A stretch of 64,000 bases of DNA from Naegleria gruberi. Its lineage: Eukaryota. A program made the position numbers and the translations under genes. The stretch lies in assembly GCA_000004985.1 (NCBI GenBank), contig GG738872.1. One strand, written 5' to 3'. This document shows positions 8,301 to 64,000 of the stretch, piece by piece. The notes under the pieces were generated by a model. It was not told the origin of the DNA. It saw only the letters and a list, made by a program, of their open reading frames with translations, and did no database searches. Each line of letters begins with the position of its first letter. The first letter of the stretch is position 1.

Positions 8301-8542
8301 ACATCATCTAGATAAGTGCCTGCCCATTTACTTGAAATTGTTGGTACATTAAAGCGAAGGTTCATGTACAAGAACCCAGAAGTACTTGTTTCTAGAAGAA
8401 CAAGTGGTAATTGATACTTTGAACACACTGTCTCACTCTTGGTCCAATAAACCTTCGGCTCGACTTTAACAAATTTTTGTTTTTTGAGTGACTTCTAAAT
8501 TTTTTATAAAAATATTTGTCAATCCTTCTCACCTCCCACGGT

Positions 8543-9439: not shown

Positions 9440-9605
9440 TTTTTCTGGAAATCTTAATAACAGTTAAAACTGATTTTTTTAGAGGGTTACTTGAATGTTG
9501 AGATTTTACAATAGTTTAAGGAGTAATATTAATTAATATTTTTGTAAAGGGGTATTAAACTCGACTATTTGCTGGAAGTGATAACACTATTCAATATTAA
9601 AAAAA

Positions 9606-11992: not shown

Positions 11993-12210
11993 TTTTTTTA
12001 CTAATTTAATACTGTTGTGTTGTGGTGATTGTTCCAAAAAAGTAACTATTCTCTCTACATGAAGTTTTAATAATTTTTAACTATTTTCAATTGTGTGTCA
12101 AATTATTTACAATAAATTATTGACAAGACTTTTCTGTGCTTCAAGTTTACAAAGACTTTTATGTGTGCTTTACAAGATTCGAACATGTTCTTCCACCTCC
12201 ACTAAATAAA

Positions 12211-13167: not shown

Positions 13168-13961
13168 TTTTTTAAATATTTAAATTATTAATAGTTTATG
13201 TTACGGTATTGAACTTGGAAGTTTAGTATCGAATATTGTAAAAATCTTGTAAAGGACTTCTATACTCTCACATGCAAAAACAATTATTTCCAATCGCAAC
13301 AAAATATTAGATGATTAAGAAAATGCCTCAACCACAATTCATTAGAAATTCAAGAAGACCCCAACGAATCCATACCTTTTCTTTTGGAAATTTGACCTGA
13401 TCACATTGGCGTACTGATTTTCAACTTGTTGTAATATTGAAACGTGGAAGCCTAGTAGTTCAAAGAACCAATCGCTTAATTTATGATGATATGGATTTTT
13501 AAAGAATGACTTTCAATACTGTATTGTATAATCAATAGTAACAATAGTAAGCGCAACGATTATTAACGAACATTTAAAGCTGCAGGATTAGCAGAGGAAT
13601 ACCCCTCACAGTTGGAAGAGAACATTTCAATTTTAACAAACTCCCCTGTTGAATATTAATATCATAAATTAACATAAAGTTGTTATAACAAACAAGTCAT
13701 TAATTCAGTATTTTTTCATTGGATTGAAACAAAATTGAGTGGATAGCCAACAGTGTTCTTCTTGGAGTTCTGTTTTTATTCGAAAGATCAATTGTATCCA
13801 CAAATTTTCATCTCGATTTTTTAATCATTATCGACAATTGAAAATTCTTCAAATATTGAAACTTCTCTCACAATAATTATTACTTCTCAATGTTGAGCCT
13901 TTCACTAAATTCCTTATTCGGAGTTACGCGATCGGAGTAAATGTTGAAATTTAAAAAAAAA

Positions 13962-15906
13962 ATGTCAACACCCTCACGATACGGCACCTCTGTTCAATCA
14001 TCAGATGAAGGTGGCCTCTCAGCAACCATTGATTCCTATCATGCCGATGATAGAATCAGTGTAGAAAGTGCTCCGAAGAGACAAAGCCACGAAAACAAAT
14101 CGAATAATCAGGCGCACACCTATGGATCATTTGTTGCGTATTGTTTTTGCGTGAATTATATTCTTGGAGTAGGAGTGTTGGGTAAGAATTTAAATAATTT
14201 AAAAAATTAATTTGCGAAAAATTGTTCCGTACGAAAACATTTTATTTTTGATTTTTTAAATGAAAAATTCGTGATGATGATTTTTTGTGGATTTTTTGTG
14301 GTTGAATGATGAATTTGATGATTTTTCATTGGATTTGCTGTTATTTGTGATATTTTGTGGATATTAATAGGTGTTCCTAATGGTTTTCAAAAGGGAGGAA
14401 CTATTATTGGACCAGTTTTCTTATTGATTGTGACGATATTTGCTGCATTGGTGTTGAATTGGATATTGGAAACTCTGTGTAGAGCAACACCTTTCTTTAA
14501 GGAACAAGAAGAAGAATCGAAACATCTTCAAGATGAGGACGTTTTGAGATTGGATGCCAGTAATAATTTAATTGAAATTGGTGAGGAGAAGGATTTGTTT
14601 CATTTTCCTGAACGTCGTTATGAAATGAATGAATTGTGTAGATTGTTTTTGGGAAGATTTGGCAAAATTATTTATGATATTGCATTGTGCTTTTACTTGT
14701 ATGGATCATTGTGGAGTTATTCAACTGTTTTTGCTGAAAGTATGGCTTCACACGTTCCATTGCCAATTAATGGATGGTACACTTGTAATGTGAATTCGGA
14801 TAATTCAGTTTCATGTGATATTTTGTATAAGATTTATGTTGGTATTTATGCACTTGTTGTCATTCCAATGACATGTCTCAATTTGACTGAACAAAAACCG
14901 GTTCGTAAGTAGTTGAATTATTATTACACATCTTTACGAAACCATTGTAAACTGTGTGAAATATTATTATTATCACTATAGAAATTATCTTGACCATTTT
15001 CAGATATGTTGCTTTGGCTTTAATGATTGTTGTTTCATTCGTTTCAATTTTTGTTGATCCATACTCTAGATATCCATCTAATCCTCACACTGCCATGGAA
15101 AGACATCCACCCTATGTTTCTAAAACAAGTTTAGCATCAGGTGATGGATTATTTGTCTTACTTCCAATTTGCATTTATGCTCAAATTTTGCATCACTCAG
15201 TTCCAGGGTTGAGTGAACCTGTGAGAAATAAGAAACACTTGCCAGCAATTTTCACCTCAACATTTATTACAACCTACTTGTTTTATACCTTATTGGGTGT
15301 CACACTTGCTGTATATTATGGTGAAAATATTCAAGCTCCTTGCTCTCTCAATTTTGGATACTACAGAGGTGGTAAGCCATTTGGTATGAGCACACCAATT
15401 TGGGCTGAATTTATTATCTATCTCATTATTTTATTCCCTGCTATTGATGTCTTGTCTGCATTCCCATTGGTAAGTTATTAGGAATCAATCTCTTTGTGTG
15501 GAATTATTAACAATTTACAAAGAATGCCATCACATTAGGTAACAACATTCATGCTGCATTCTTTACAGGAACTAAATATTTAGCAAGCAGAAAGATTCAA
15601 GTTTTCTTCAGATTGGTGGCTGCCATTCCACCAATTATTGGAGCTTTATTTGTTTCTGATTTGGAATTTATTTTGAAATATGTTGGATTGTTTGGATTTT
15701 TGATTACCTTTGTCATTCCACCACTCTTGTTCCTTGTTTCCAAATATAAGGCAAATAAGAGATTCAACAAGAGCGAAACACCATACACTAGGAAATTCAT
15801 CAGTTCTCCAATTTTGGCTGTTATCTGTATTGCATTTGGAGCTATTGCTATTGTCTATTGTATTGTCGCAAACATTGTTTACAGCGTTTTGGATAAGAGT
15901 GAATAA
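13962..15906 (+). CDS. Amino acid transporter (Aa_trans / SLC32-36-38 / AVT family), four exons (13962-14181, 14371-14905, 15004-15469, 15523-15906)
   Basis: ORFs 13941-, 14355-, 14990- and 15613- join via canonical introns. These are GTAAGA...AATAG (14182-14370, phase 1), GTAAGT...TTTCAG (14906-15003, phase 2) and GTAAGT...CAAAG (15470-15522, phase 0). The product has about 11 TM helices. It contains Aa_trans-like segments (YGSFVAYCFCVNYILGVGVLGVPNGFQKGGTIIGPVFLL...SAFPLNAITLGNN...). The last intron's acceptor is the only one that restores the frame. Confidence 0.75.
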
Positions 15907-15935
15907 TTATATCTTTGAAATAAATTAATATGTTT

Positions 15936-17186
15936 TTAATAAATTCTATTCTTGGGACGAACAAAGGCCGTAGGGATAACACAAACAGCAGCTACCACTG
16001 AAATACTTCCAAAGACTCCCAAAATACCACCTGCAACATAGTAGGCTTCGTATCGTGTCGAGATTGGTTCAATAATGTTAACCAAATCCTCCTTCTTATT
16101 AGTATAACACAAAACAATATCTCCAACTTTCATTGGAAAATAAATTCCTGTTTCTTCCATATTATAAGGTAAAAATGTTGTCAATTCCAAAATTGTTCCA
16201 TTATTCTCTGTAACATTTTTCAAACTTGGAAATTTCACATCAAAATAACAATAAGTTCCTCTATCCAAATATTTTCCTCTTTCAGCACAATCATTACTAA
16301 TATCAACAAGAGTACAATTATGTTCCCATGTCAGTGCATTTGGGTCATTCTTAAATGTAGGATCAGAATTAATTTGTCCAAACAAATAGGCACAAACTCC
16401 CAATTGAATTGCTGCCAGAATTGAGCAAACGACAATAGTCGGAACTACAAATGACAAAATAAAGAGCCAATGAGGTGTATCTCCTTTCATTAATTTCGAA
16501 ACAGGTTCCTCTGTAGTAGCACCACCATTAACACCACCACCTGTCGATCCACTATTAATTGTTTGTTGTGATGATAAATTATTGATGGCTCTATTTTCTG
16601 GAAGAGGTGGTAAAATAACCTCAGTAAATCCCTTCTCATTGGTATCTTGTTTTTGGAGAGGAAGTGATGGTTTCACTCTATCAGTTTTAACTTTACCATC
16701 ATCCTCATCACTAGAAGAAACTTCATCATCATCGTCATTATCGTCATCATTGGCTTCATCTTGGAATCTAACACCTCCCTTCTTCTTCTTTCTCTTTAAC
16801 TTGTTTTTAATTTTACTCTTTAATCCGCCGTTATTATTATTATTCACCAAATCATTCAGTGTTGGTTCATGAAGTCCAATTAAATTAGAGTTTGATGCTG
16901 AATTAATTGTTGAAGATGAATATTCATCAATCAAAACTGGTTCATTTCTATTGTAATTATTATTGGTGGTGGTGATGTTATTAGAATATAGAGTTGATGA
17001 AGAAGAATATGGATTATTATTAACTCCTCCGAAAGAAGAAGAAGAACCTAATGAATTGTTGGTTGCAAATATCACATCATTCGTAGGACCTTGTTGCTGA
17101 GAATTTGTTACTCCTCCTCCACCATTTGTTGTAGATGATGAAACAAAAACATCATCCCAATCATTATCCCCTCCTCCATGATTCAT
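15936..17186 (-). CDS. Membrane protein with a long low-complexity N-terminus and two TM helices flanking a Cys-containing lumenal or extracellular domain, 416 aa
   Basis: Single ORF. The N-terminal 230 aa are N/S/G/D-rich and include a basic patch KIKNKLKRKKKKGG. The C-terminal region is TM1 (WLFILSFVVPTIVVCSILAAIQL), a roughly 120-aa domain with 5 Cys, then TM2 (YVAGGILGVFGSISVVAAVCVI). No family recognised. Confidence 0.45.
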   Translation of the reverse strand: MNHGGGDNDWDDVFVSSSTTNGGGGVTNSQQQGPTNDVIFATNNSLGSSSSFGGVNNNPYSSSSTLYSNNITTTNNNYNRNEPVLIDEYSSSTINSASNSNLIGLHEPTLNDLVNNNNNGGLKSKIKNKLKRKKKKGGVRFQDEANDDDNDDDDEVSSSDEDDGKVKTDRVKPSLPLQKQDTNEKGFTEVILPPLPENRAINNLSSQQTINSGSTGGGVNGGATTEEPVSKLMKGDTPHWLFILSFVVPTIVVCSILAAIQLGVCAYLFGQINSDPTFKNDPNALTWEHNCTLVDISNDCAERGKYLDRGTYCYFDVKFPSLKNVTENNGTILELTTFLPYNMEETGIYFPMKVGDIVLCYTNKKEDLVNIIEPISTRYEAYYVAGGILGVFGSISVVAAVCVIPTAFVRPKNRIY

Positions 17187-47639: not shown

Positions 47640-50600
47640 TTATTGTTGAATGGTTGAGTTTGGTCTATTTTCCTTATCACCCAATTGTCTATATTTTTGC
47701 TTGATAGATTCCAAGTCGATGGAACTACTATATCTATTGGTAGCACTATTGGCCTTGATATTGGCAAATCTTTCTCTGAGACTATCAATATTGTTGGTAG
47801 AGGAGAGAGCACTCGAGTAGGTAGAACCATTAATATTGGACAAGCTTCTCATCTTTCTATAATCCTCAATTGATTTTGGTTTGGTATCAAATTGAGAAAT
47901 GGTGGCACTATTTACACTGCTGTAACGAGATAAGATGTTTTGGGAGAGGCTGGAAGTGGCAGGGGTTGTTGTTGGAATTTCCTTGAGAACTGGTCTAACT
48001 TCCTCTGGAGGAGAACTGAATGGCATTTGGTTGACTGAATGATTGACTGTAATGGTTGGAGTTTGTTGTGTAGATTCGAGGGCGACCTTCTTCGATTGTT
48101 CATGAGCAGCAATCTTGGCAACAGATCCAATAATGTACTCTTGGAAAATCTTACCAAATGATGTAGTTCCAAGGAATTCGTTGATTTTAAATTCAGGATG
48201 TTGCACTTGGAATTTGTAAAGCTTATATAATCCAGATCTTGTGGTTTCCTTATTTCCAATTAATGTACAAATTTCCTTGAGTTGATCACTCTCTGATTCA
48301 AACAAGCTGTTGGTGCTATCAGAGGATGTAAAGGTGTTAGTGTTGGTGGAAGAACTAGAAAGAGAGAGGACGTTCAACTCGTGTTCAATGTGAGAAATCA
48401 TAACCTTATTGAGTGTTGTGAGATAGGTTCTCAAAGAGTTTCCTTTCAGCTTGACAAGAGTTTGGATAATAGTCTTGATCATTCTCAAAGGGCTATCATC
48501 CTTGCCTTCAAAGAATGTTGGAGGATTGCTAGAGAGGAAGCTTTGAATATCCAACAATACTGAACCAATTTCAATGATACCAATTGTCTTTTCCAAAGTC
48601 TTAGTGAGCTTGGAGAGACACTTGATAAGTACCTTGGTAAAGCTGGTTGGTTCCTTTTCATGATCGAGGCAGGACTTTTCCAATAAAGTAATCAAGCAAC
48701 TGTAAGCAGTGGTTCTGGAACAATTTTCAAGAATACGAAGAATGAGAGTATTGAGAGCAGCAACCATCTTTTCACCATATTCAATAGTTGGTAACTTGTC
48801 ATTGAGTAAAAGTCTGAGTAAGACTTCTAAAAGATTGAGGAGAGTCTTCTTTTGTACCAATGAGGAAAAGTTTCTAGATTCAAACAAACCCATCATGGTA
48901 TTGATCATAATCTTACAAATTCTTGGACCAGAGAGACCAATAATGACAGAGTCAAAAGCAACCTCAAAGAAGATGGAAAGGGAGTAAACCAATTGTTCTC
49001 TATTCATGGAAATACCCATATCTTGGTATTCAACATGCTTATCAAGAGTCTTCATGGCATTCATAGCATTTTCAAAGTTACTGATTTTAGTGTTAGTGAG
49101 AACTCTAATGATTTGTTCGACAGACATTTGTACATCCTTAGATTGTGGAACAATATTAATCTTCTTTGGAGTTAACAAGGTGGTTGGTGACAATAATAAT
49201 TCTTCAGTAGCAAGCTTTGAGAATTTGAGCTTCTTTGGTGTAGTAAAGACACTATCCTTGACTGTTGAAATGCTTCTCTTTCCTGGAGTAGAAGGAGGAG
49301 ACATTGGACATTCGATTGGTTTTGGGAAGTCCATTTTGAACAAGGAGGATTGAACAAGAGTTTTTCTTGAGCTCTTATCATCTTCAATGACTGGTTGGAC
49401 TGGAGTAGGTTGTGTAACTGTTTTAGATTGGTTTTGCTTTTTCATTTCTCCAATAGTGAGGGAAGAGGAGGATCTTTGCAAAGTTGAAGCAGCTGGTTGG
49501 GTTTGTGGTTGTTGGGCAGGCTTAGTTGGTGGTTGTTCAGCTTTGACTGGTTGAACTTGTTGGACAGTTTGTTGGGCTGCTGCTGTTGGTTGATATTGGT
49601 TTTCATACTTGGAAATAACAGCAATGATGCTACTCTTGGAAGCATTGTTGAGATCTTGACAGAAACTCTTGATAAAATCAGCACCAGTTGTTCTGATAAC
49701 CTTTTCCAAAACTGTTTCAGCAAGTTTTCTTGTGCATGCCTTTGGGTCTTGCAAGCAGTTAATGAGAGGCTTGGCGAGGTGTTGGAGAGTATCCCTAGAT
49801 TTGTTCTTGACTTCCAAAATGTAAGTGTCAATGAATTGGAGAGCATCTCTTCTTCCTTCAGGATGGCCCTTCTCATTGTTCAAAGGCTTGTCCATATACT
49901 TGATAATGTTATCCATATTGAGAGATTTAACAAGTCCTTCTAAAGTTTGGTAAGTAGCAGTTCTGATCACCTTATTGTTGTGAGTGAATTTGGTCACCAA
50001 ATTTTGTAAAATGACTGGACTGAACTTTTCAAATCCACTACCAGCAGCTTCACCAATGAAAACATAAAGTTCCATTGTTGTACTGAGAATCTTGACATTA
50101 GCATCTTCCATTCTCTTCTTCAGAGCTTGAATGAGATTATTAAGATTTGGAGTAATTCTCTTATTAGCTTCAGTGATTATATTCTTGATTTCTTCCAAAG
50201 CTTCCAATCTAGTCTTCCAAGCTTTGTCCTCCAATTCTCCAAGAATCTTTGATGTAATCTTGCCAGAGATATCAGTTCTTGGCAGTAAATCATCAAAAGA
50301 TGGAGCACTACCTGGTTCACCAGACTTACTACTTGTACTAACATTCATACCTCTGACAAACTTGGTTTGTGTAGGTGGAGCATCTGTGAATTTTTGGAAT
50401 TCCTTCTTGATGGAATCCAACAATGCAGGCTTGACATCATTCAAATAATTCAAAAGTCCATCTCCCATAAACTTTTTCATGGAACAGAGAATTTCTGTAG
50501 CGCCAGTCTTGACAGGAGGCTTAGCATTACCCAAACAAACCTTTGAAAAATCAATAATTGACTTGACATCAATAGTTTGCATGGCAAAGTGTTCGATTGT

Positions 50601-51629
50601 AGCAGCCATCCATCCAAGAGTTTCACCAGCAATCTTTGGATTCTTGTGATCCTTAATAATTGGGTAGAGTTGATTAAAGACGAATTGAGGAGAGTACATT
50701 TCAGCAAGCTTGGAAAGACATTGAGTGCAAGGATCTTTCAATTTGGCAGTAGCAATCTTTTCAACAAGTCCTTCAATAACTGTTACAGCAGGCCCAGTTG
50801 AAAGAGTTGAGCAACTGTCCACAATTAACATTACCATTTCAATAACTTTTGACAAATTTTGAACATTTGATTCCTTCCAGCCAGGCTTTGAGTTAAGAGT
50901 TACGACAATAACATCAGCATTACTAGCCATAACATCCTTATCCATTTCTGTTAGGGATTTAGAGAGAGATTCAATTGCTTCCATACGTTCCTTCAATTTA
51001 GAAGAAGATAATGCCTCAACAATGGATGCATCAATAATTTCTGCAATTCTACTTTGAGCCTCCTCAAGGGACACTGTATTTCTAATACTGTTATCAATAG
51101 GTTTGGAAAGTTCCTTCCCACCAGCAGCTTTCTTTTTTGCAGGTGCAGCAGAAGAAGCACCATCTGATTTTCTCTTCTGTGAAGGATTTGGTCTTGAGAG
51201 GGCTGGCTTTTTAAGAGGAGGACGACTAGTTGTTTTTGGTGGTGATGTTGTTATTGTTGTTGTTGACTCGGTAATAGTATCGGCATCAACAGCAGATTCT
51301 TCCTCTGCTATTGTTGCTTCTGTTGTTGTTTTAGATGGTGTTGAAGTTATTGTTGTTTGTGATGATTCCTCCTCTGTATTTGATGATGATGATGATGTTG
51401 TTGCTGCAGTAGTGCTTCGTTTGAATGGACGAGCCTTGTGTTTACGTTGTGGTGGAGGTCGATTGGTTCTTGTGGTTTGGGAAATTCCTCCTGTGGATCC
51501 TTCTTGTTGTAAGGCTTGCTCTAACATTTTTTGGAAGAGAGCATTCGAGTCCAATACATCTACATTTTCGCCATTATCATCGGTGGCTTGATTATTGTTT
51601 GATGTTGTAGGGATTGGCTTGTCTTCCAT
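47640..51629 (-). CDS. TOG/HEAT-repeat microtubule-regulator-like protein (XMAP215/CLASP/crescerin-type TOG domains), about 1330 aa, single exon
   Basis: ORF 47640-51665 begins at TTG. The first ATG at 51629 gives MEDKPIP. After a 200-aa S/T/A-rich N-terminus come TOG-like HEAT arrays, for example DKAWKTRLEALEEIKNIITEANKRITPNLNNLIQALKKRMEDANVKILSTTMELYVFIGEAAG...KVIRTATYQTLEGLV. Confidence 0.6.
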   Translation of the reverse strand: MEDKPIPTTSNNNQATDDNGENVDVLDSNALFQKMLEQALQQEGSTGGISQTTRTNRPPPQRKHKARPFKRSTTAATTSSSSSNTEEESSQTTITSTPSKTTTEATIAEEESAVDADTITESTTTITTSPPKTTSRPPLKKPALSRPNPSQKRKSDGASSAAPAKKKAAGGKELSKPIDNSIRNTVSLEEAQSRIAEIIDASIVEALSSSKLKERMEAIESLSKSLTEMDKDVMASNADVIVVTLNSKPGWKESNVQNLSKVIEMVMLIVDSCSTLSTGPAVTVIEGLVEKIATAKLKDPCTQCLSKLAEMYSPQFVFNQLYPIIKDHKNPKIAGETLGWMAATIEHFAMQTIDVKSIIDFSKVCLGNAKPPVKTGATEILCSMKKFMGDGLLNYLNDVKPALLDSIKKEFQKFTDAPPTQTKFVRGMNVSTSSKSGEPGSAPSFDDLLPRTDISGKITSKILGELEDKAWKTRLEALEEIKNIITEANKRITPNLNNLIQALKKRMEDANVKILSTTMELYVFIGEAAGSGFEKFSPVILQNLVTKFTHNNKVIRTATYQTLEGLVKSLNMDNIIKYMDKPLNNEKGHPEGRRDALQFIDTYILEVKNKSRDTLQHLAKPLINCLQDPKACTRKLAETVLEKVIRTTGADFIKSFCQDLNNASKSSIIAVISKYENQYQPTAAAQQTVQQVQPVKAEQPPTKPAQQPQTQPAASTLQRSSSSLTIGEMKKQNQSKTVTQPTPVQPVIEDDKSSRKTLVQSSLFKMDFPKPIECPMSPPSTPGKRSISTVKDSVFTTPKKLKFSKLATEELLLSPTTLLTPKKINIVPQSKDVQMSVEQIIRVLTNTKISNFENAMNAMKTLDKHVEYQDMGISMNREQLVYSLSIFFEVAFDSVIIGLSGPRICKIMINTMMGLFESRNFSSLVQKKTLLNLLEVLLRLLLNDKLPTIEYGEKMVAALNTLILRILENCSRTTAYSCLITLLEKSCLDHEKEPTSFTKVLIKCLSKLTKTLEKTIGIIEIGSVLLDIQSFLSSNPPTFFEGKDDSPLRMIKTIIQTLVKLKGNSLRTYLTTLNKVMISHIEHELNVLSLSSSSTNTNTFTSSDSTNSLFESESDQLKEICTLIGNKETTRSGLYKLYKFQVQHPEFKINEFLGTTSFGKIFQEYIIGSVAKIAAHEQSKKVALESTQQTPTITVNHSVNQMPFSSPPEEVRPVLKEIPTTTPATSSLSQNILSRYSSVNSATISQFDTKPKSIEDYRKMRSLSNINGSTYSSALSSTNNIDSLRERFANIKANSATNRYSSSIDLESIKQKYRQLGDKENRPNSTIQQ

Positions 51630-52370
51630 TTTTTTTGAATTTGTTTGTGGATTGTTTAACACCAACTAACGATCAATTTTTTTAAATTTTGGCGCCATTT
51701 AATTTTGGCGGGCAAACAACTAAAATCTACCAGTCAACTGAATTAATTCTTTCACTTGACAATCAAATAGTGTTATTGGTAATACCTCTCACAAATAATA
51801 TGTAATACAAAACCCATCTCAATAACAAATATTTCGAAATCAATACAGTCAAATGTTATCACTCTACAATTTTTTCACAAGTTATTTCCGCCCAATTTAA
51901 CGATATTCATCAATTTGGCACTCTCTTTCCCCTCTGTGAATTTTCCATTTAAAAGGCATTACTCATTTTTAACTGAATTTTCTGTAAAAGAAGAGAGGAA
52001 TGTTTTTTTGGAGGTTGTGCCGTAAGTACAGTTGGTTCATGGATGATTTGAAGAAAGGGCAGACAAATAACTTGTTGTAAAGACGCACACTAGAGAGTTT
52101 TAACAAGTTAAAAAACAGTGTCAATTGGTTGCTCTCTCTGATCCTCTTTTACTTTCGATTGGTTTCGTATATCGTAGTTATTGGACTAAGAGTATCGACG
52201 ATAGTGGAAGATTTTAAAGGATTTTGGGTAATAATTATTTTATGGGGTAGGTTTTACTTGTCAACGTTCTAGTTCACCTTCTTGCCTGTCAAAAATACAA
52301 AAAAAGGACGAAATATTATCTCTTAAAGTTTTGATGAGAATTGAATAATCAATCAATAGAAAATTATAAA

Positions 52371-55300
52371 ATGTTAACCCAAAAGTATAATCCCAAGATG
52401 AAACTTGGTAGTGGAGCAGAAGGATTAGTTTATTTAGGTTCGTATACCTATTCGAAATATATATTGACATTAGGAAACATATTATTTCATCATCATCATT
52501 TTCAATAATAATAACAATAATAACAATAATTATCATCATCATCATCGTGATCACAACTCCAGTCGAGGAAAAATCCACCAACAAACTATTCGCCATCAAG
52601 ATGATTACTCTCTTTGAGGAAGAAAATTTTGAAAAGATTAAAAAGGAAGTCGATTTGGTTCGGAAGTTTCATGAACACAACAATATTGTGAGGTATTTTG
52701 ATTATTTTGAGGAGAGAACCATTGATGCTTTTGCAGGTGTTGAATTGAGACTCTTCTTTGTTATGGAATATTGGTAAGTAATTTATATATTTGATTTGTT
52801 ATATATTCAATAATAATAATATTATATTCAAATTTGCTATTATTATTATGTGTTTTTTCAATATCCATTCATCAATGTTATCTTCATATGAAATTGTTAC
52901 TTTACTATGATGATTATGATGATTATATACATATGAAACTCTGATCAATATATTGAACATCATCATCAACATTGATACAATGCATCTCTAATGGATCAAA
53001 TCAATAATAATGCTAATAACATTAACATGATCACCAAATTCTTCAATTCTACAACTGTGATTTTTCTTCATCATATTTGCACATCATCCAATATCCAATT
53101 ATTATCAATTAATAACACTAATAATACTAACAATAACAACAACTACTATAACAACATTCATATAAATAGTGATAAGGGAAGTTTAGAAACCATCATTCAA
53201 GAATATCTCAAGGAAGGACAACATAAGAATAGTGGAAGTGAGGATTTGGCAGCTGATAAGCATCTACCCTTCTCTTTTATAATATCAACTATAAAACAAT
53301 TGACGAGTGTTTTAGTATATATACATAATCAACAAATAGTACATAGAGATGTAAGTCTAGTCCATTAATTTCAAATAGTTGATCATCTTTTTCGAAATGA
53401 TAATGACATAATATGAAACTATAGTTAAAACCTGCCAATTTACTATTCAAAGCTGTATCATCAACAAATATATCCATCACAGAGACAAGTAATGAATCAA
53501 CAACAACAACAACAACAGCTGTTTCCACATCAAAGGAACAACATTCAACAAGTTGTACTTCTATATCAGAAAATGATAATATTATTGAAAATTGTAAAAA
53601 AGAAGCATATAATGATTGGGTACTCAAATTGAGTGATTTTGGATTCACCAAACAAATGAAAGATAATATGGCCCAAAGTTTTGTTGGAACAATCCAATAC
53701 ATGTCACCTGAATTGTTCAGTTCAAAGAAATATGATGCAGGTACTGATATTTGGTCATTTGGTGTTTGTATTTTAAGAATGTTTGCATTTCTGGATGAAA
53801 CCAAAGTTCCAGATCTGAGACATGAAATTAAGAAGGATTCAGAGTTTGTATGTAAATTATGCAAAAAGTATAAGGCTCCTAAGGTGGTTGAGGAGATTGT
53901 CTATGCCTGTCTGTTATTGGATCCAACCGATCGTCCAACAGCTGCAGAGATTTCACAATTTTTGGAAGAGTTTGAGAAGAGTGGAGGAACTGTTTCTCTG
54001 TTAAAGAAGGTTAAATTCACACCACCACCTTCATCACAAAATTTAAATGATCAGAATGGAATGTTGGATGTTTCTATAACGATGGATGATGAATTGTCCT
54101 CCTCTTCATCCTCTGATGGAAGTCTTCCATTGGAAAAGATTATCAATGATAAGGCACGAGAATTTTGGAAGCAACATTCTTGGGAGAGAAGAGTCAATTG
54201 GATGGATTTCAGAGAGGCCTACATTAATCTGATTCAACAATTGAAAATCGAAGAAAAGAAGAATGAAAATAATGAAATTACAACTGAGTCTCCTGGGATT
54301 AATATTAGTTATACAGGAATTTCAATGACTGATTTCATGAGAGGCCTAAAGACTGGCGTATGTAACAAGTATTTCGACACTGTATCAATAGAAGATTTGA
54401 ATGAATTGACAAAGCAAGCTGGTTTCCCGTTCAATCCTGAATATGTGATAAATCTTGCTGCTTACGAGATAACTGACGACAAGGAGGTTGATATTGAAGA
54501 TGTAACAATGGATACTGAAACTTTCATGAGGGCGCAATCCAAATATTTGGAAACTATTCTGACTTGTGATAAGGTATTCATTGATCCAATATCTCAGGAA
54601 CCTCTCCAGATTGATCAACATTTGGCTCCTCTGGAATTGGTTGAAACCAATGAATGGAATGATCTTTTGAAAACCGAACAAGAAATTGAAGAAGACGATG
54701 AAAAGAAAACCAAAGTCGAACGAGGATCGAGTCAATACTATGAAGATGCAGTTGATTTCCTCTCGAGTACCAGTGATAGACCTCTCAAATATCTCATTTT
54801 GGGTTCTGCTGCTTGTGGTAAGACTTGTATGATGAAACGATTGTGCTACAAGGCAGCTCAATCTGCTTACAAGAGGGCTGGTGATACAAATTCATTCGAT
54901 TTGGTTCCACTCATGGTTCCAGTAGCAAATATTCCAGTAGAAGAGCACGACAATATCCCATTCAAACTCAAGTGTATCAGAGCATCGGCTGACACCTTCA
55001 ACAAGGGTCTCAAATATTCTGCAGATGTGGAAAAGTTCCTCTTAAATGTTTGGCAATGTGGACGATTACTCTTATTATTGGATGGCCTTGATGAGGGTGG
55101 AGAGAATAGAGCCAAATTGGAAAAGCAAATTTGCAAGCTCAATTTCAGAGAGTTGGGAGGCATTCTCACCACCAGTAGAGTCAGTGGTTTCGAACAGGAA
55201 GAGGCCAAGAATGTTTTTGATAGTTTCAAGATTGCAAGAATCAAACCACTCACTTATCAAATTCAAAAGCAAGTTGCCTTGAGTAGAGGTCTCAAAGATC

Positions 55301-58179
55301 CAAAATTCTTCCAATCCCTCCAAAAGTATAAGGAATTAGCAAAGATTCCACTACTTTTGAGTTTAATGATTCAAGAATACAAGCAAAATAAGGAATTACC
55401 AGATATTAGATCAGTTCTGTATGACCATGCTTGTGAAACAATGATTTCAGTCTATATCGATAAGGTCAGACCACATACTACCAAACAAGAGAGAAGAGAT
55501 TTATTCGAAATGCTCTATGCTGTTGCAAGTATTTTACACGACAATACTAAACGTTACTTTACGAGTGCCTATATTGAAAAGCACCTCCAGGAAATTACTA
55601 CCATCGTAGACTTGGAGGCCTCAGCCAACAATAGTGTAACAAATGGAAGTCAACCACCACTCTCCTCTCAGTCAATTACCAATGCAAACAATCTTACAGC
55701 TAACGAATCTGGTACAAACTTTTCATCAAGTTCCAGTGAACCAAGTAGAAATGTATACGAAACTTGGAAGACTTTCCATCAAGATATCGATGATGGACAT
55801 TTCCCGCTCATTATTCGATTGGGTAACAATTATTCATTTGCCCACTTGTCATTCCAGGAATATTTCGTTGCCAAAGTGTGGAGTGATGCTAGGAGAGTTT
55901 CAAGAATTAGAGAACAAAAGAAGGGTCGTTTGAATTTCTTCTCGAGAAAGAAGGAAAATCTTCCAATCGTATTTTCCTCAGAAACTAAGAAATTAATTAT
56001 TGATCCATGGTTCAGAGAAACTTTCTTAATCTGTGCTGGATCAATGTCTAGAGATGATTTCAATGAATTTATCAATTACTTGTCTGAAAACTTTAAAAAG
56101 AGTTCTGCCATTGATAATTTACTTCTCCAAATGATTAGAACTGAAAGACCAAGTGATGAGAGGGATCAATACAGTGAAATTGAAAAGAATATTACAACAC
56201 AAAAGAAGTTGAAGAATATGATTTTGGAGGGTTTGATTCACGACTCTTCAGTTTTGAGAGAAATGACAACCAAGAGAGTTGCTCTCTATGAGAGTGACTT
56301 GACCAATGTTATTGCATACTTGTTGAAAGTTGTGACCAAGAATAAGGATAAGACCAAATCAGCCACCCACAGCTTGCTAGATATCTTCCAACAATTGAAA
56401 GACGATAAGGAATTCAGATATAGAACTACCAAACGATTGATTGAATCACTTGCTGACAAACAGTGGAAGATTGGAGAGCAATCAGTCATTGCACTCTTAG
56501 CAATTGCTGAGAAGGAAGATACGAGAATTACTAAAAAGTTGTGGACTCTCATGACCAAGCCACCAATTGAAGTACAAGTCAGAGCATGTTATGCCATTTC
56601 AGTCTTGGCTAAGAGGGGAGACTCCAAGTTTATTAACAAGTTTATGGAGATTTTACTCTCAGAGACAATCAAGGAAGGTCGATATATGGACAAGATGATT
56701 GAGAGCTTGACAAATATTTGTGTCAGGGCAGATGAAATTGTCCTCTCACAAATCAGATCCAACATTAAACAAGCCCAGAACAAGCTCATTCGACACGGAT
56801 TGATTACTGCCCTAGGAAAGATCTCAGCTCCAGGTGATAAGCAAACAATCAAGTTACTCGTTCAAATTCTTTCAAAGGAAAAGTCATCCGATACACTAAC
56901 CTTTGTTGTAGATGCTCTCAAGATGGTTTGTGAAGCGAGAGAAACAACCAACTTGTCCATTGCAATCAAACTCCTCAAGGATCACATTGCATACAGACCA
57001 GATAAGTCTCTACGTGAGGAATACGAAGAATACGAATTTAGTTTCAATGATTTGAATCAAAAGATTATGGAACTCATTCAAGCACTATTGTTGGGCAGAG
57101 AATACTCCAAAAGAGATACCAAAGATATGAGCTTATATGTGAAAGGATTGACTGAACAATTGAATAAGGATAGTAATTTTAAGAAACTTGTTTATGAGCT
57201 CTATGACACCATGTTCACTTTGGCAATTACTGGAGATTCTCAAATAAGAAAGACAACTGTATCTACATTCTCAGCTATGGTTGACCATAATGATGAAGAA
57301 TTGCTAACCTTTATTTTTGACAAGATCAAAAACGACCTTCTCAAGAATATCATGACTGAAGACAAATCTATGGAAATCACAACAGTTATTTTCCTTTTGG
57401 GTGTTGTATTTGCCAATACAGCCAATTCTCAGGCCATTAATGTACTTTTAGAATTGTTAGAATCAAACAGTTCGAATGCTTACTTACTTGGAGAGATTTT
57501 CACAGCCATGGGTAATGTTGCTCCACGCAACGATACCTTCCTTATTGAGATGATGACCAAATATTTGGAAATGGAAAAGGATGCCCACATGCAAGAGAAG
57601 GAATTGTGGAAACTCAAATCGAGAATCATCTCTGCCTTGGAAAATATTTGTCTGAGGGAGGAGAATAATGAAAGACTAGTTACCAAGATGCTCCAATTGT
57701 TGGAAGTGTGTCCTCAAAAATTTTCACATACATTCAAACCAACTTGTATCAAGGCAATTGGAAGACTCTTAAAGAAGGGAGAAAAAGATGCCATCAACAA
57801 ATTGGGACCTTTGGCAGCTGATAAGGATAGTTTCATTAGAAAAGCAGTTGCTTATACTTTGGGATTGATTTCAGATAAGGCCAATAAGAATGCAGTTAGA
57901 GTATTGAAAGATATGTTAGAAGATGAAAATGCAGAAGTTAGACAAGAAGTTATTGAAAGTTTGGGTAAAGTAGCAGATTTAGAGCAGTTGGTGACTTCAC
58001 TCAAGGCCAACATTTCTGAAACTATTAGAACAGCACTTTTCCAAATGATTATCTATCAAATTAGAGAATCGAGACAAGAAAATCCAAAGTTTTCACTTCC
58101 TTCCAAGCAAGTGAAACATTTAGAAAGTTTGAATTGCACAGAAGCCAGATTCATTCTGTTGGAGAATTACAGCGTGTGA
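52371..58179 (+). CDS. Protein kinase / NACHT (STAND P-loop NTPase) / HEAT-repeat multidomain protein, NLR-like; four exons (52371-52437, 52563-52773, 53170-53350, 53425-58179), about 1740 aa
   Basis: The kinase domain is split over exons 1-4. Motifs: LGSGAEGLVYL; LFAIKMI...EKIKKEVDLVRKF; FFVMEY|C|DKGSLETII; VYIHNQQIVHRD|LKPANLLF; DFGFTK; GTIQYMSPE. The introns are 52438-52562 (phase 1), 52774-53169 (phase 2) and 53351-53424 (phase 0). NACHT motifs: Walker A LILGSAACGKTCMMKRL, Walker B GRLLLLLDGLDEGGE, sensor ILTTSRV, IPLLLSLM. The C-terminal 600 aa are HEAT / PBS-lyase-like repeats, for example LIRHGLITALGKISAPGD and DSFIRKAVAYTLGLISDKAN...DENAEVRQEVIESLGKVAD. Confidence 0.8.
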
Positions 58180-58272: not shown

Positions 58273-60473
58273 TTATGGATTTTCTTCCAAGTCCTTCAAT
58301 ATTGTTGTGATTGAGTCGTATGTTTCTTTTGTGAGTAATTGTGCTTTGGATTGGTAGATCACAAAGGCCTTTAGGGCAATAATTAGAGAAATGAAAGAGT
58401 TTTCAGGAAGGTCTTTCTTAATGGATTCCCTGTTAGCTTCGTGATCCTTGCACAAACAACCAATAAGAATTGCCAAATAAGAAGTGATGATATTATCTTC
58501 CGTATGTTTAAGACTGCTTCTCAAATCACCCTTCTTTTCATTTTCTTTCTTTTCAGTCGAAACTAAATCCACAATCTCCGCAGCTGCATTGTCACTTCTT
58601 TGGGAATCAGTTGTTGCTTGCTCTGCTACATTAACTGTTTCATCCTCATCTTTGTAGTCTTGTTTGGCATAATATTCCTTGAATAAATCTATTAAAAATT
58701 GTAATAATTTCTTAGTCTTTCCTCTAAATTCAAACTCTTTTGGAATAGGGTAAGAAAAACGTTTTCTCAATACTTACTGAAATTTCTTATTAGCTCTCGA
58801 TTAGTCCAGCTACTATCTGTCATGTTTGAAAGTAAGGCCAAAGACATTGTGAGAATGTCGAAATGTTGTGTATAACTTGAGGCTAAAACAGAACACACTC
58901 CAGAAATACCATTTTCTTCGGCAATTTTGTTGCAAATATCATTATTACAATTGCTGATATTTGTCAAAAAACGTAAAGTGATGAGGGTGCAATCCAACAC
59001 TGGATGGCCATCTTTAAGCTCGCTCAATAAAGATTTGTCTATTTGAAAATGGTAAACCACAAATAATATTCCAAGATCCACTTACTGATTGGTGTCAGAC
59101 AATTCAATAATCTAATAAGAGCAGGTAAGAAATAGTTCCAAGCCTCAGCATTCTTACTTGGGTCTGAAGAGGCATACTTTGTCACAATTCCATTCTTTTC
59201 CAGCATTTTAATACAGTTACACATATCACCAGATATTAGATCATCTCGTTCTTGTTCTAATATTGCCAATAGGCAAGGTACTAATCGCTCTATTGTTTCT
59301 ATACTATTCGATTTAACAAATAACAGGGTTGGTTTGTTCTTGGTTATAAATTCTTCCTTATTGGATGATTGGTGATACTTCAATTCAAAGTTGTAATGCT
59401 CGTAATTTACAATATTTACCATGGCAGATAGAGCCAAGGAAATGGTGGTCTTCTCGAATGTTTTAATGTTGGCATCCTCATCTACTACCTTTTCTTGCTC
59501 TTTTTGAGCTTTCTTTGGTGAGCCTGCTTTGAGAGCTGCCATTCTTGTTCGTTTGGTTCTTTTGATGGAATCCAAGTTTGAAGTTTGTTGCCACTTTAAC
59601 ACATGGTGCTGTTTGATAATTTCATGGAGTGTGACGAATGAGGTTTCAGTTGCATATTCAGCATTCAGAGGATCTTTAAGGAGAATCCCTATAATTTGAG
59701 CAGCTGTCAATGAAAGTAATTGTTGCTTTTCAAAATCAATGACTGTGCATAGAGTTTCAACCATAGACTTAACCATGGAGTGACTAGGGACATTATTGAA
59801 TAAATAATGAAACAAATTCTTATCAAACTTACGCTCTGAGGAAAATTCCCAAATCATTTCCTTCCTGTGAAAACATTTGTGCAAGTGAGCTAGCACTTGA
59901 ACATTTAATATCCAAAGATCTAGAATTGAGTCCACCTAAATAGTTTAAAATACTCTCCTTCTTATCCAACTCCTTTCCTGAAACCTTAATTGAAGTTGAT
60001 GACATTCTCTTTTGTTTTTTGAGTGCTCTAATTTCCTTTTCTCCATATTCATCTTCTGATGAAGAATAATCAAAAACGTCATCAAAAAGATCATCGGAGA
60101 AGAAGTTATCCTCAGCAGATGATGATTTCTTTCCTGGTGATTTTGAATTTGGTGTTTTTGGAGTTTTTGGTGTGCCAACTTTTGGACTCTTGCTTGGTGT
60201 TGATTTTGATGAAGATGGTTTCGGACTCTTCTTTGGAGTTGATGGTAATTTTGATTGTGATGATGAATCAAGGCTTGAACGTTTCTTTGTCTTTTCCTTC
60301 AAAGTTTCATCAAATACATTCTCACCGAAAATGTCATCATCACTCTTTCTTCTGGTACGTTTCTTCTTCTTTTCATCATCACTGTTAATATCATTGAAGA
60401 GGGAGACTTTTTTCGAGTTGGGTGAACTCTCCACTTTGACAAGCACTGGATTCTTCTTTTTAAACGTCCTCAT
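58273..60473 (-). CDS. Helical-repeat (ARM/HEAT-like) protein with a K/S/P-rich disordered N-terminus, four exons (60473-59833, 59783-59086, 59038-58778, 58736-58273)
   Basis: Four minus-strand ORFs join through three canonical GTAAGT...YAG introns of 49, 47 and 41 nt, with phases consistent (phase 2, 1, 1). The N-terminus carries basic SPKK/TPK repeats and acidic FxD motifs (DIFGENVFDE, NFFSDDLFDDVFDY). A possible cohesin-regulator (WAPL-like) identity is speculative. Confidence 0.5.
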
Positions 60474-60704
60474 CTTTTTTACAATATTAAATTAAATTAA
60501 TTCTTGTTGTTAAATATTTCTTCCGAAAATGTTGATTGATCCGATTCGAGAAGCTATGCAGAAGAATTATTGTTATTTTTTTCTATATTTTTTGGGAATC
60601 GACGAGTTTTGGCGCCAAACATTTTTAAATATTTTTGTAAACATTAAAGATTATAATAGCATTAATACAACATCATTCAAACATCAAGGAACAACATTAA
60701 AAAA

Positions 60705-62309
60705 ATGCAACAAACTTCATCTCCTTCTGCCTTCACCCAACATCACCACTATTCCCTTCAATCGGTTCAAGTTTCTTCCTTTGATTTATCCAAGAGAGCC
60801 GTCGAAAGTGGTCGAATGGATCCCGAGAAATTTGACCAAGAATTTTCTTCAAATCCTTCATCAGCTTCATCTTTAAATGAATCAAATGATTTGATTGGAC
60901 AATCAATTCCAATTTTTGAAACTTCCTTCCGAAGGGATCGTTATCAGAAAATTGTTGAACAAAAAGGATCGAGTTTGAATTTGTGGCCAAATTTTGCAAA
61001 GTGTATGTTTTTTAGAATCGAGTGATGAGGAATTTAATATTTGTGTCGATTCGGATGATGTGATGGAATTTGTATTAATATGAATTTTTAATCGAATGGA
61101 AAATTTGTTGGTGGGTTTTTTAGTTTATCAAGCAAGAGATTTTAAAGCTGGAGAATATAAAACGAGTAAGTTTTAGGAATTAATGATGTAGGAATGGCTA
61201 ATGGATGAAATAGTTATTGAAATTGATTGTAAAACTTCAGAAAGTGTAAGTGTGATTTGGTAGTTTATTCTGATTGACTGATTGTTTCGAATAGCCATCA
61301 TCATTCTTAATGTATTTCATGTCTAGATTCAATTCATACTCTCATAAATATGTAGTTCCAATCCTAGACACATACATTACAAAGAATTCCTGTTGTATTG
61401 TTACTCCTTACTACACTCAGGGAAGTATGCTTCGTTTACTCAAGACAAGATTGGAAAAGCAGAAATTCCTCAAAATTCAACAAATTTTGTGCTATTTTTC
61501 TCAATTATTGGAAGCTATTAATTATATTCATACTAATTTAAAGACAACTGTATGTATTGGAATGATTGAAAAATATGTAACCAATTTTTTATCCATATTT
61601 ATTCGAATTGGATGGCATAATACACTGAATCAACATAAAGATGTATGGTGGAATTTCCTTAGATAACATTTTTATGGATGAAACTCTGGAGAATATTTCC
61701 TTGGGTTATGTTGGAATTCACATTCATACCATGAATTTATATCTGAACAATTATTTCAACAAGTCAGAATTGTCCATGCTTGGTGGAGCCAACTTGTTGC
61801 AATCAAAATCAGAAACGACCTATAATTCCAATAACTCTTCTGATGATCTCGATGAAAAGCAAGTTGATAATCCAGAACAGCTCACTAAAAACGATGAAAT
61901 TAAGGAAATTATTTCCAAATCCTCAACTACAAATGAAGAACTAGCTGGATGGCAATATTTGGATGTTTATGCTTGTGCCATTTCAATTTATCAATTAGTG
62001 ACACTCTCCCTTGATATGTCCTCTGAGGAATCTCAAAATATTGACAAGAACTCAATTCAAGCCTCTTATACCTATCAATTAGTAAGAACTTTGCAACAAC
62101 AGCAACAATTATCAGAAGAAGAATTATCATATTGGAAGGAATATATCAAAAATAAGATTGGAAGAGTATATCACAATAAGAAACTCATCAATTTATTAAC
62201 TGAAATGCTCAATATCAGTCAATCCAAATTAACAGCTCAAATGTGCATCAAATTACTGAAAGAAATTCCACCAGAAGACGATGACGATGAAGAAAATGCT
62301 CACTACTAG
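60705..62309 (+). CDS. Pseudokinase-like protein, multi-exon. The 3' exons 61295-61549 and 61641-62309 are confident. The 5' exons between 60705 and 61294 are unresolved.
   Basis: Kinase subdomains IV-VIa are recognisable (HKYVVPILDTYITKNSCCIVTPYYTQGSMLRLL...INYIH). The catalytic loop reads MYGGISLDNIFMDE instead of HRDLKPENILLDE. The DFG equivalent is LGY. A 91-nt GTATGT...AAAG intron (61550-61640, phase 0) links the two 3' exons. The C-lobe is helical (WQYLDVYACAISIYQLV). Confidence 0.5.
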
Positions 62310-62561
62310 ATATTTTCCAATTCAATATTCGATTCCTTCATATGTAACAATTCTTTGATTTGAATTTAACACAAAAATCTTGTAAATATATTAAATCTGC
62401 TGCTGCCTGCTGCTCTGTGTCTCGACCAATTATTCTCACTAAATGAACAAATCGGTTCATCATTAAAATTGCAACCTCACCAAACACTTTTATTGTAAAC
62501 TTCATCATTTCATGCTAAAAGTAGAACATTGAAAAGTTCCAACAAACAAACACAAATAAAA

Positions 62562-64000
62562 ATGAGCGATTACGATGATGAAGACTTGGAATTTGCCATT
62601 GATGATGAGGAAATTGAAATGACGCCAGGTAAGTGGGAGAATTGTTTGCTAATGTGTTTGTGTTTGTCGGTTATTAAAAGGTACTGGACAATCCTATCGA
62701 TTTGATGAAGATGATGCCTTCATGATCGATGATGAAGATGGTACAGCCTACGATGGACAAGAGTTTGATGCAAAGGATGTTGAATATGTAATTCTCACCC
62801 AGGAAGAAATTGTTCAAGAACAAGAGAAGGAAATTGCTCGTATTGTGGAGATTGTTGGAGTGACTGATACATCGGCAAAAGTCTTGTTGAGAAAGTGTGG
62901 TTGTAAGTTTCTTCAAGTTTGATATTATTCATCAAAATGATCAATCTTATAATAATACTAATCAATAATACAATTAAATAGGGAAGGCAGAAAGAGTAAG
63001 TTAACAATATCTAGGAATAATAGTAGTCATAGTATTATAATAATAATTATTTACAATTTGATCATCAATATTAGGTTTTAAATATTTTCTTCGAGAATGG
63101 AAAGGAAGGTCTTTTGAAAGCAGCAGGTTTGAGTGAGAATGATCTTCGTGATGCTGACAGTTTGAAAGTATCGGGATGTGAAACATTTGAATGTCCACTC
63201 TGTTATGATGATGTACCTGCTGATCAATGTACAAAATTACCAGCTTGTTCTCATGCTTTTTGTAATAATTGTTGGAAGGCACACATTGAAAGTAAGATCA
63301 AGGAAGGAAAATTACAAATTCTTTGTCCTGAACTTGGATGTGCTTGTATTGTTGATGATGATCTTATTAGTCAATTTGCTAGTTCTCAAAATAAGAAGAA
63401 ATTTGATGCTAAATTTATTGAATCCTATGTTGAAGACAATGTTAGTATTAAGTGGTGTCCATCTGCACCTTGTTGTGGAAGATGTGTCCGAGTTAATGTA
63501 CCTCACACTACACCACTTGAAATTGATTGCAAATGTGGATGTTCATTCTGTTTCAATTGTTTGAAATTCCCACACTTACCAGCTACTTGTAATATGATGA
63601 CTGCTTGGACTGTAAAATGTCAAAATGATAGTGAAACATTTAACTGGTTGGCTGTAAATACAAAAGATTGTCCAAAATGTCACACTCCAATTGAAAAGAA
63701 TGGTGGTTGTAACCATATGCATTGTCATAAATGTCAACACCACTTTTGTTGGGTTTGTTTATGTGATTTCAATCACACAACATACCAACACTCTTGCGGA
63801 AGATTTGAAGAAAAGAATACTGAAAATGCCAGAGTCTCTTTGGAAAGATATTTGCACTACTATAACAGATATAAAGCTCACGAAGATTCAAGAACTAGAG
63901 AAGAAAAGACCAGAGAAGTAATCAAGAAAAAGATGGTTGAAATGTTTGAATTGAGGCCAAACTCTGCTTGGATTGAAGTTCAATGGGTTGAACAAGCCAT
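62562..64000 (+). CDS. ARIH1: Ariadne-family RBR E3 ubiquitin ligase (ARIH1-like), 5' partial within the window; exons 62562-62628, 62681-62902, micro-exon 62982-62995, 63075-beyond 64000
   Basis: Acidic N-terminus, then a UBA-like segment (...SAKVLLRKCGWKAERVLNIFFENGKEGLLKAAGL) assembled across a 14-nt micro-exon. RING1 follows (CPLCYDDVPADQCTKLPACSHAFCNNCW), then IBR (WCPSAPCCGRCV...CKCGCSFCFNC), then RING2 (CPKCHTPIEKNGGCNHMHCHKCQHHFCWVCL), then the start of the Ariadne domain. The frame is open to the window end. Confidence 0.85.

Follow-up and report, generated by a model that had tools for sequence, protein, structure and literature searches.

STRAD alpha, a pseudokinase adaptor related to STE20 that acts with MO25 to activate LKB1, is a well-established example of a dead kinase working as an allosteric activator; MO25 binds the C-terminal Trp-Glu-Phe (WEF) motif of STRAD, and STRAD still binds ATP via retained residues. 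In the conceptually related ZED1/RKS1-ZAR1 and NEK7-NLRP3 systems, a kinase-fold protein binds a STAND or NLR protein without catalysis. In most kinomes about 10% of the kinases are without K72, D166 or D184 and are believed to be scaffolds; such pseudokinases make up 71% of the expanded Nek family of Giardia (PMC3218828). Here we describe NAEGRDRAFT_68379, a gene at positions 60705-62309 of a 64-kb stretch of Naegleria gruberi DNA (contig GG738872.1, the window), whose product keeps the protein kinase fold and has lost the catalytic motifs. That this is a real gene with a kinase fold and with motif loss we regard as close to certain.

The locus resembles each of these systems in part. As in many Giardia Neks, structural motifs are kept while catalytic residues are lost, but the Naegleria gene is single-copy and slowly evolving and does not belong to a rapidly turning-over expansion. 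Like STRAD alpha it encodes a stand-alone pseudokinase of similar size, with a weak match of 19–22 bits. That match covers the N-lobe only, and the C-terminus reads …EDDDDEENAHY with no Trp-Glu-Phe, so we do not place the protein in the STRAD family; the glycine loop (G-loop) and beta3 Lys are also lost here, in contrast to the ATP-binding STRAD. A STAND-type gene, encoding a kinase-NACHT-HEAT protein, lies nearby as the ZED1/RKS1-ZAR1 and NEK7-NLRP3 parallels would have it. In contrast to ZED1/RKS1-ZAR1, however, the pseudokinase shows neither conserved tight linkage nor co-occurrence with the NACHT gene. No IRAK/Pelle/RLCK/RLK kinase was among the PDB sequence matches at E ≤ 1e-3, where WNK, NEK, STE20 and CAMK-like kinases were at the top, and for want of IRAK/Pelle affinity the protein does not belong to the RLCK-XII family of ZED1 and RKS1.

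Gene structure and kinase fold

NAEGRDRAFT_68379 is a five-exon gene on the + strand whose in-frame pieces join into a 431-aa product. The spliced product has exact-sequence identity to the deposited protein (EFC43614.1 / XP_002676358.1 / UniProt D2VHM6), which presently carries the label 'predicted protein' or 'protein kinase domain-containing protein'. The reading frame is unbroken across all five exons, and the introns (121, 48, 49, and 91 nt) are short, as is usual in this AT-rich window (~33% GC), with GT..AG borders in 4/4. The exons and the segments within them are as follows.

60705-61002, + strand: exon 1, aa 1-99 and the first base of codon 100; variable N-terminal extension, pre-beta1 region, degenerate G-loop
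61124-61165, + strand: exon 2, beta2 and the beta2-beta3 turn, FYQARDFKAGEYKT, from the gene model, orthologue alignment and hhalign
61214-61245, + strand: exon 3, beta3 strand IIEIDCKTSES, with I115/E116 (61216-61221) at the VAIK Lys site
61295-61549, + strand: exon 4, aa 125-209; alphaC, beta4-beta5, hinge, alphaD, and alphaE (…LEKQKFLK…YFSQLLEAINYIH)
61641-62309, + strand: exon 5, aa 210-431 and stop; dead catalytic loop, dead DFG, activation-segment insert, subdomains IX-XI, and acidic tail PPEDDDDEENAHY
61644-61667, + strand: catalytic-loop remnant YGGISLDN, Y211 to N218, from alignments to WNK1 and to an active kinase
61707-61715, + strand: DFG remnant Y232-V233-G234, preceded by G231, from HMMER, hhalign and MAFFT alignments
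61734-61943, + strand: activation-segment insert, aa 241-310, of low complexity and variable length, unaligned in hhalign
61950-62255, + strand: C-lobe subdomains IX-XI, with W313..L316-D317-x-Y-A, the conserved QQQQQLSEEELSYWKEYIKNKIGRVYHN, and MLNISQSKLTA

An earlier note on this DNA, made from the sequence, had recognised kinase subdomains IV-XI from position 61295 onward and left the 5' exons (60705-61294) to be resolved. With the model identical to the annotated protein, exons 1-3 supply an N-terminal extension and subdomains I-III, present too in degenerate form. In the orthologue alignment the extension carries a conserved patch, SFDLSKR..E.G..PEK, and exon 1 continues with the conserved pre-beta1 motif FRRDRYQKI and a degenerate glycine loop, LWPNFAK (60984-61001), in which hhalign placed P95-N96-F97-A98 on the G-x-x-G positions. 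Exon 3 aligned with the 'VAIKKL' of an active kinase (hhalign), and its I114, I115, and E116 were invariant in four species. Intron 1 was common to all four of these species (N. gruberi, N. fowleri, N. lovaniensis, and Willaertia magna), and all four intron positions were kept in 3/3 Naegleria, the intron after exon 2 being conserved in the three Naegleria species only.

The product matched the Pfam Pkinase family (PF00069) at 46.7 bits (E 3.6e-12), above the gathering cutoff of 31.7, with the best stretch at residues 136-224, and precomputed PF00069 and PF07714 assignments are on record for the orthologues. A four-orthologue profile aligned to active kinases in hhalign with 99.7% probability (E 2.5e-26) over 247 columns covering residues 76-414, from the pre-beta1 motif to subdomain XI, so that both lobes and subdomains I-XI could be aligned. 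The fold proposed in the note was thus confirmed by profile, and beyond the subdomains it had listed. An AlphaFold model built on ten alignment rows had a mean predicted local distance difference test score (pLDDT) of 51, with ~60-84 over residues 111-230, and showed the strand and helix order of a kinase. Foldseek returned at least 1795 PDB chains at E ≤ 1e-3, and 50/50 of those listed were protein kinases or contained one; among the matches listed, NEK7 and WNK1/3 recurred near the top beside CDK2, PknB, and GCN2. Template modelling scores were low (0.3-0.5) because the AlphaFold model is weak, and we used the structure for fold confirmation only.

Loss of the catalytic residues

We mapped the kinase motifs from the HMMER alignment to WNK1, from hhalign, and from a MAFFT alignment with the active kinase domains of the neighbouring gene's family. 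Against active kinases the GxGxxG loop has become LWPNFA, with none of the G-loop glycines. I115 replaces the beta3 Lys (K72), with E116 adjoining, and L129 replaces the alphaC Glu. HRDLKPEN has become Y211-G-G-I-S-L-D-N218, with G213 in place of the catalytic Asp, Ser in place of the loop Lys, and the Asn unchanged; this remnant aligned with IHRDLKCDN of WNK1 in HMMER and with MHRDLKPEN of the active kinase in hhalign. DFG has become Y232-V233-G234, and the Gly before it (G231) is as in the 'GDFG/GDLG' of NEK and WNK. There is no recognisable APE motif, its site being occupied by a low-complexity insert of 60-75 residues. The subdomain IX Asp is retained (D317), and the subdomain XI Arg is Lys/Arg. 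K72, D166, and D184 (PKA numbering) are therefore all missing, replaced by I115/E116, G213, and Y232, which makes the protein a pseudokinase by the sequence definition.

The earlier note had already called both motif losses, with the letters slightly out of register. It read the catalytic loop as MYGGISLDN, where the remnant is YGGISLDN and the M is the preceding residue, and it read DFG as LGY, a triplet shifted by two residues from the equivalent YVG; the loss of the metal-binding Asp stands.

The replacements are shared by the family. M210, Y211, G212, I214, and N218, as well as G231, Y232, and G234, were invariant across N. gruberi, N. fowleri, N. lovaniensis, and W. magna. Full-length orthologues had the consensus IIE(I/V)(D/E) at beta3, and all members, including fragments, had TTM(Y/F)G(G/C)I..(D/E)NIF and G(Y/F)(V/L)GIH where the region was present.

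A six-frame scan of 60400-62600 found no alternative coding of HRD, DFG, or VAIK, only out-of-frame chance matches. Alternative exons that would restore HRD or DFG, an outcome that the note had named as fatal to its proposal, were likewise rejected, as read-through of intron 4 gives 'NQHKDVWWNFLR*' and reaches a stop. The note's central proposal, that the fold is retained and the canonical residues for phosphotransfer are lost, is supported, and the loss is a conserved one and not an annotation artefact.

Orthologues and selective constraint

Independently annotated orthologues with matching exon structure were present in four genomes, and identity to the N. gruberi protein was 55% in N. lovaniensis, 54% in N. 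fowleri, and 48% in Willaertia magna. Exon-5 fragments were also found on environmental contigs (P0004 and P0148), and the catalytic-loop and DFG losses of the exon-5 region recurred in an environmental fragment. We do not count P0148 as an independent lineage because, over most of its aligned length, it appears to match N. fowleri exactly.

We estimated the ratio of nonsynonymous to synonymous substitution rates (dN/dS) by the Nei-Gojobori method between N. fowleri and N. lovaniensis, where dS was 0.64 and unsaturated, with segments given in N. gruberi numbering. The whole pseudokinase had a dN/dS of 0.146, compared with ~0.09 for the neighbouring kinase-NACHT-HEAT and WAPL-like genes. The ratio was 0.30 in the N-terminal extension, 0.044 in the N-lobe, 0.010 in residues 166-240 (alphaD/alphaE, dead catalytic loop, dead DFG, and GIHIHTMN), 0.50 in the activation-segment insert, and 0.10 in the remaining C-lobe. 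Because dS was similar in every segment, the constraint acts on the protein. The low dN/dS, together with orthologues that have the same degenerate motifs, indicates a selected pseudokinase and not a decaying gene. On these comparisons the motif loss is ancient and conserved.

A metagenomic contig from a Naegleria-like amoeba (ENA ERZ27315067 k141_1719882, 411-1064) carried the exon-5 part of an orthologue, with MFGGITLENIF…GFVGIH. The same contig had a PEMT gene downstream of the pseudokinase, followed by a PTP gene. As the contig comes from an unsampled amoeba, the pseudokinase family and its PEMT linkage reach beyond the sequenced species.

Phyletic range and kinase affinity

An exhaustive HMMER search of the orthologue profile against 1.84 billion cluster representatives returned, at E ≤ 1e-30, three proteins of the Naegleria/Willaertia type and no others. 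The best match after these was at 57.8 bits (E 8.8e-11) with ~100 residues aligned, and a word-indexed profile search found no further family members. Three strong matches followed by a drop in score indicate that, as far as detection reaches, the family is limited to Naegleria, Willaertia, and their near relatives in environmental samples.

Against solved structures the profile scored 24.9-25.9 bits to NEK7, 25.7 to WNK1, 23.8 to WNK3, 22.3 to STRAD alpha, and 21.5 to CIPK23. The best active relative (P0005) was NEK1-like (E 5.8e-32). Several features are of NEK/WNK type: the pre-beta1 (D/E)RY..KI, KQK.L…YF.QL..AL..H, …NIF…, and the Gly before the DFG site. The likeness to NEKs in particular includes a catalytic loop that ends in N-I-F, a Gly before the DFG site as in the NEK7 'GDLG', a KQK.L…(K/C)YF.QL..AL..(I/L/M)H segment as in NEK6/7, and a pre-beta1 (D/E)(K/R)Y…(K/R)I, and NEK7 was a top match both by sequence (~25 bits) and by fold. 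Of the NEK signature HRD(I/L)K..N(I/V)F(L/I), the …N-I-F-(M/L) part alone survives (YGGISLDNIFM), and this part also occurs in WNKs. Unlike NEKs, the pseudokinase has no coiled-coil, ankyrin, or RCC1 accessory domains, and it has the 60-75-residue insert.

WNK1 was the best single-sequence PDB match (24 bits), aligned from alphaC to DFG across its '…DNIF…' and 'GDLG', and the pseudokinase has an invariant beta2 Lys, which we take, from the WNK1 sequence, to lie one residue off the WNK catalytic Lys. WNKs differ in being active, with HRD and DLG retained. The WNK-related pseudokinase NRBP (NRBP1) gave no match at E ≤ 1e-3 in the PDB sequence comparisons. These motifs point loosely to an ancestor of the NEK/WNK-like 'NIF' type among the active Ser/Thr kinases; for this ancestry, and for a NEK-like origin, we see roughly even chances.

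Proposed role

We think that NAEGRDRAFT_68379 probably encodes a lineage-specific pseudokinase of Naegleria and Willaertia (Heterolobosea) that serves as a non-catalytic scaffold or allosteric regulator through protein contacts. From an active Ser/Thr kinase ancestor the bilobal fold would have been kept while the residues that bind and transfer the ATP gamma-phosphate were all lost. With the G-loop Gly, beta3 Lys, alphaC Glu, and both Asp gone, no nucleotide binding is expected, and the protein is very probably catalytically inactive. It would instead work by binding other proteins. Constraint is strongest in the region from alphaD/alphaE through the dead loop and dead DFG to the GIHIHTMNLYLN segment that follows, and its extreme level in residues 166-240, set against the freely evolving low-complexity insert at the former substrate-binding P+1/APE site, points to the former cleft and the base of the activation segment as an interaction surface. 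A binding surface at the pseudo-active site is one that the dN/dS distribution suggests and on which our own opinion is evenly balanced.

The gene adds one well-supported lineage-specific pseudokinase to the Naegleria kinome, which is unsurprising in itself because about one in ten kinases in most kinomes is a pseudokinase (PMC3218828). It is a clean candidate for studying, in a deep-branching eukaryote, the reuse of a former catalytic cleft for binding, and an orthologue is present in the pathogen N. fowleri. It would gain importance only through a demonstrated tie to a defined partner, be that the kinase-NACHT-HEAT protein or another.

Several points weigh against this interpretation. The NEK7, WNK1, STRAD, and CIPK scores lie within ~4 bits of each other, too close for a kinase family to be assigned from scores, which leaves the NEK assignment weak. 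The structure model is of low confidence, and the binding surface is drawn solely from the dN/dS distribution. Searches of literature and supplements for NAEGRDRAFT_68379, XP_002676358, D2VHM6, FDP41_002442, C9374_012505, and ABK040_015706 found no experimental data on, or mention of, the gene or its orthologues, and the scaffold or allosteric role is a proposal. Pseudokinases called by sequence have later been found active by atypical mechanisms, as in WNK and CASK, and an invariant Lys99 sits in beta2 near the displaced WNK lysine position.

Relation to the neighbouring kinase-NACHT-HEAT gene

In the main alternative, the STAND protein encoded upstream (kinase-NACHT-HEAT) would have the pseudokinase as its dedicated decoy, licensing factor, or allosteric partner, by analogy with ZED1/RKS1 and ZAR1 in plants or with mammalian NEK7, which binds NLRP3 independently of its kinase activity. 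We consider this very unlikely. Two neighbouring genes bear on it.

52371-58179, + strand: kinase-NACHT-HEAT gene; N. gruberi predicted protein of 1737 aa, 100% identical to P0134
58273-60473, − strand: helical-repeat WAPL-like gene, divergent from the pseudokinase across a 231-bp spacer

The kinase-NACHT-HEAT protein has an intact G-loop, AIK, HRD, and DFG, and clear Walker A (GSAACGKT) and Walker B motifs. Its Pfam matches were Pkinase at 149 bits, HEAT_2 at 68 bits, and NACHT at 22.3 bits, the last below the 26.7 cutoff, and its best PDB match was NEK2, by a small margin. Both kinase domains are thus loosely NEK-like, which would suit a partnership. NEK7 chains from NLRP3 complexes (6npy_B, 8ej4_K, and 8sxn_A) were also among the top sequence and fold matches of the pseudokinase, though this reflects similarity to NEK7 only.

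The earlier note had suggested aligning the pseudokinase to this kinase domain as a check on paralogy, and the alignment speaks against it. BLASTP gave a non-significant, mis-registered match (E 3.5), and the pseudokinase profile matched the neighbour's kinase-domain family in hhalign at E 2.6e-8 over 81 columns, as against E 2.5e-26 over 247 columns to unrelated NEK-like kinases. There is therefore no specific paralogy, and we rejected it, the profile match being far weaker than that to unrelated kinases.

Linkage in N. gruberi is close. Both genes are on the + strand, and the kinase-NACHT-HEAT stop lies 2.5 kb upstream of the pseudokinase start codon and 3.1 kb upstream of 61295. The note had described this same-strand arrangement ~3 kb apart with a helical-repeat gene between, and that intervening gene is encoded on the minus strand. 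The sister species N. fowleri and N. lovaniensis keep the order (kinase-NACHT-HEAT, WAPL-like on the minus strand, pseudokinase, and Ariadne E3), with the kinase-NACHT-HEAT gene and the pseudokinase within ~9 kb. In these species, however, the WAPL-like gene is set apart from the pseudokinase by four to five unrelated genes (~6.5 kb), including a p31comet-like gene, small open reading frames (ORFs), and an ABC transporter. The interval from the pseudokinase to Ariadne holds a PEMT gene in both species and two more genes in N. lovaniensis. We compared the N. gruberi intervals 60474-60704 and 62310-62562 with 3487-10000 and 11697-13050 of locus L001 and with 3644-10000 and 11676-17048 of locus L003 from the sister species, and none of the sister species' extra genes (p31comet-like, ABC transporter, small ORFs, PEMT, and others) occurred within the 64-kb N. 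gruberi window. The tight spacing in N. gruberi is consequently a local difference within a syntenic block and not a conserved pair, and since synteny extends over the entire block, with the WAPL-like gene and Ariadne in it, linkage is not specific to the pseudokinase and the kinase-NACHT gene.

Willaertia magna has the pseudokinase on contig JBEGDK010000003.1 and the best kinase-HEAT homologue on another contig, JBEGDK010000133.1. The most widely retained neighbour of the pseudokinase, at 4/5 loci (N. fowleri, N. lovaniensis, Willaertia, and the environmental contig), was instead the tail-to-tail PEMT gene, itself missing from N. gruberi. The phyletic range of the pseudokinase is nested in that of the kinase-NACHT family, as a partner's might be. 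Against this, Acrasis kona and unidentified environmental protists have kinase-NACHT(-HEAT) homologues, and the exhaustive search, with full coverage of the Acrasis proteome assumed, detected no pseudokinase homologue outside the Naegleria/Willaertia type. Gene neighbourhood in eukaryotes also carries little functional information.

The location of the pseudokinase near the kinase-NACHT-HEAT gene is ordinary Naegleria synteny that has been tightened in N. gruberi, and it does not speak for a functional pair. The partner or decoy role that the note had put forward thus lost its footing, with no specific paralogy, a tight adjacency seen in N. gruberi only, and no linkage in Willaertia. It is improbable that the partner of the pseudokinase is the neighbouring STAND protein. 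Still less likely is the specific form of the idea, in which the two proteins would form an NLR-like sensing module of Heterolobosea and the pseudokinase, in the manner of NEK7, would license the kinase-NACHT-HEAT protein without catalysis or serve it as a guarded decoy. If true, it would be an independent protist parallel to NEK7-NLRP3 and ZED1/RKS1-ZAR1, and the loose Naegleria linkage would be a remnant.

Less likely alternatives: atypical catalysis or gene decay

A second alternative, to which we also give little credence, is that the scaffold interpretation is wrong and the protein is an atypical active enzyme that uses displaced residues (Lys99, as in WNK) or other chemistry such as AMPylation or glutamylation, known from SelO and SidJ. 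Conservation is highest in the former active-site region (dN/dS 0.010), WNK1 and WNK3 were among the best matches, three residues (Lys99, Asn218, and His236) do not vary, and position 217 is always acidic (Asp or Glu), all of which could suit a working site. Yet the Asp residues that handle metal and phosphate are replaced by Gly and Tyr, leaving no acidic catalytic residue, Leu stands in for the alphaC Glu, and no glycines are left in the G-loop. WNKs keep HRD and DLG, so that their precedent covers the lysine only, and no sequence sign of an inverted nucleotide pocket was seen.

Gene decay, an error in the gene model, or a kinase-like ORF arisen by chance would fit the loss of all catalytic motifs, the low-complexity insert, and the lack of expression data in the literature searched, but such an origin has next to no probability given the intact reading frame, the GT..AG borders of every intron, the annotated orthologues with matching exons in four genomes and a first intron in common with Willaertia, the Pfam score above the gathering cutoff, and a dN/dS of 0.146 overall and 0.01-0.04 in the core, and a decaying pseudogene is ruled out by the dN/dS and orthologue data.

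Other features of the neighbourhood

The WAPL-like gene between the kinase-NACHT-HEAT gene and the pseudokinase matched the Pfam WAPL family at E 5e-4 (19.6 bits, below the 24.6 cutoff), and its orthologues in N. fowleri and N. lovaniensis, on the minus strand, were 57-79% identical. It may be a divergent cohesin-release factor. An 881-aa gene upstream of the Willaertia pseudokinase orthologue proved not to be homologous to it.

The kinase domain of the kinase-NACHT-HEAT gene (52371-53700) carries a Ser/Thr/Asn-rich insert of ~60 residues between HRDLKPAN and DFG, which is shorter in N. lovaniensis and missing from Acrasis and environmental homologues. In the Willaertia homologue (P0137; JBEGDK010000133.1, 10001-16407), HRD is HKN, DFG is NFG, and the G-loop reads 'KKKLKNNTYL'; no NACHT Pfam match is on record for it. 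The kinase module of the Willaertia STAND protein itself seems, from these motifs, to have turned pseudokinase.

A paralogous HMG-box/WDHD1-like gene lies ~6-8 kb downstream of both the pseudokinase and the kinase-HEAT loci in Willaertia (L002 17689-19515, + strand; L004 17805-19649, − strand; tblastx up to 107 bits). The pair could be a coincidence or the trace of an old segmental duplication.

The wider neighbourhood holds a TOG-domain XMAP215/CLASP-like protein, the WAPL-like gene, and the Ariadne RBR ligase, and looks like a set of unrelated housekeeping genes. The TOG protein is encoded just upstream of the kinase-NACHT gene by a single-exon ORF of 1341 aa (47640-51665, − strand) of the XMAP215/Dis1/CLASP type (73.9 bits), which also has a CEP104-like TOG match of 54.6 bits.

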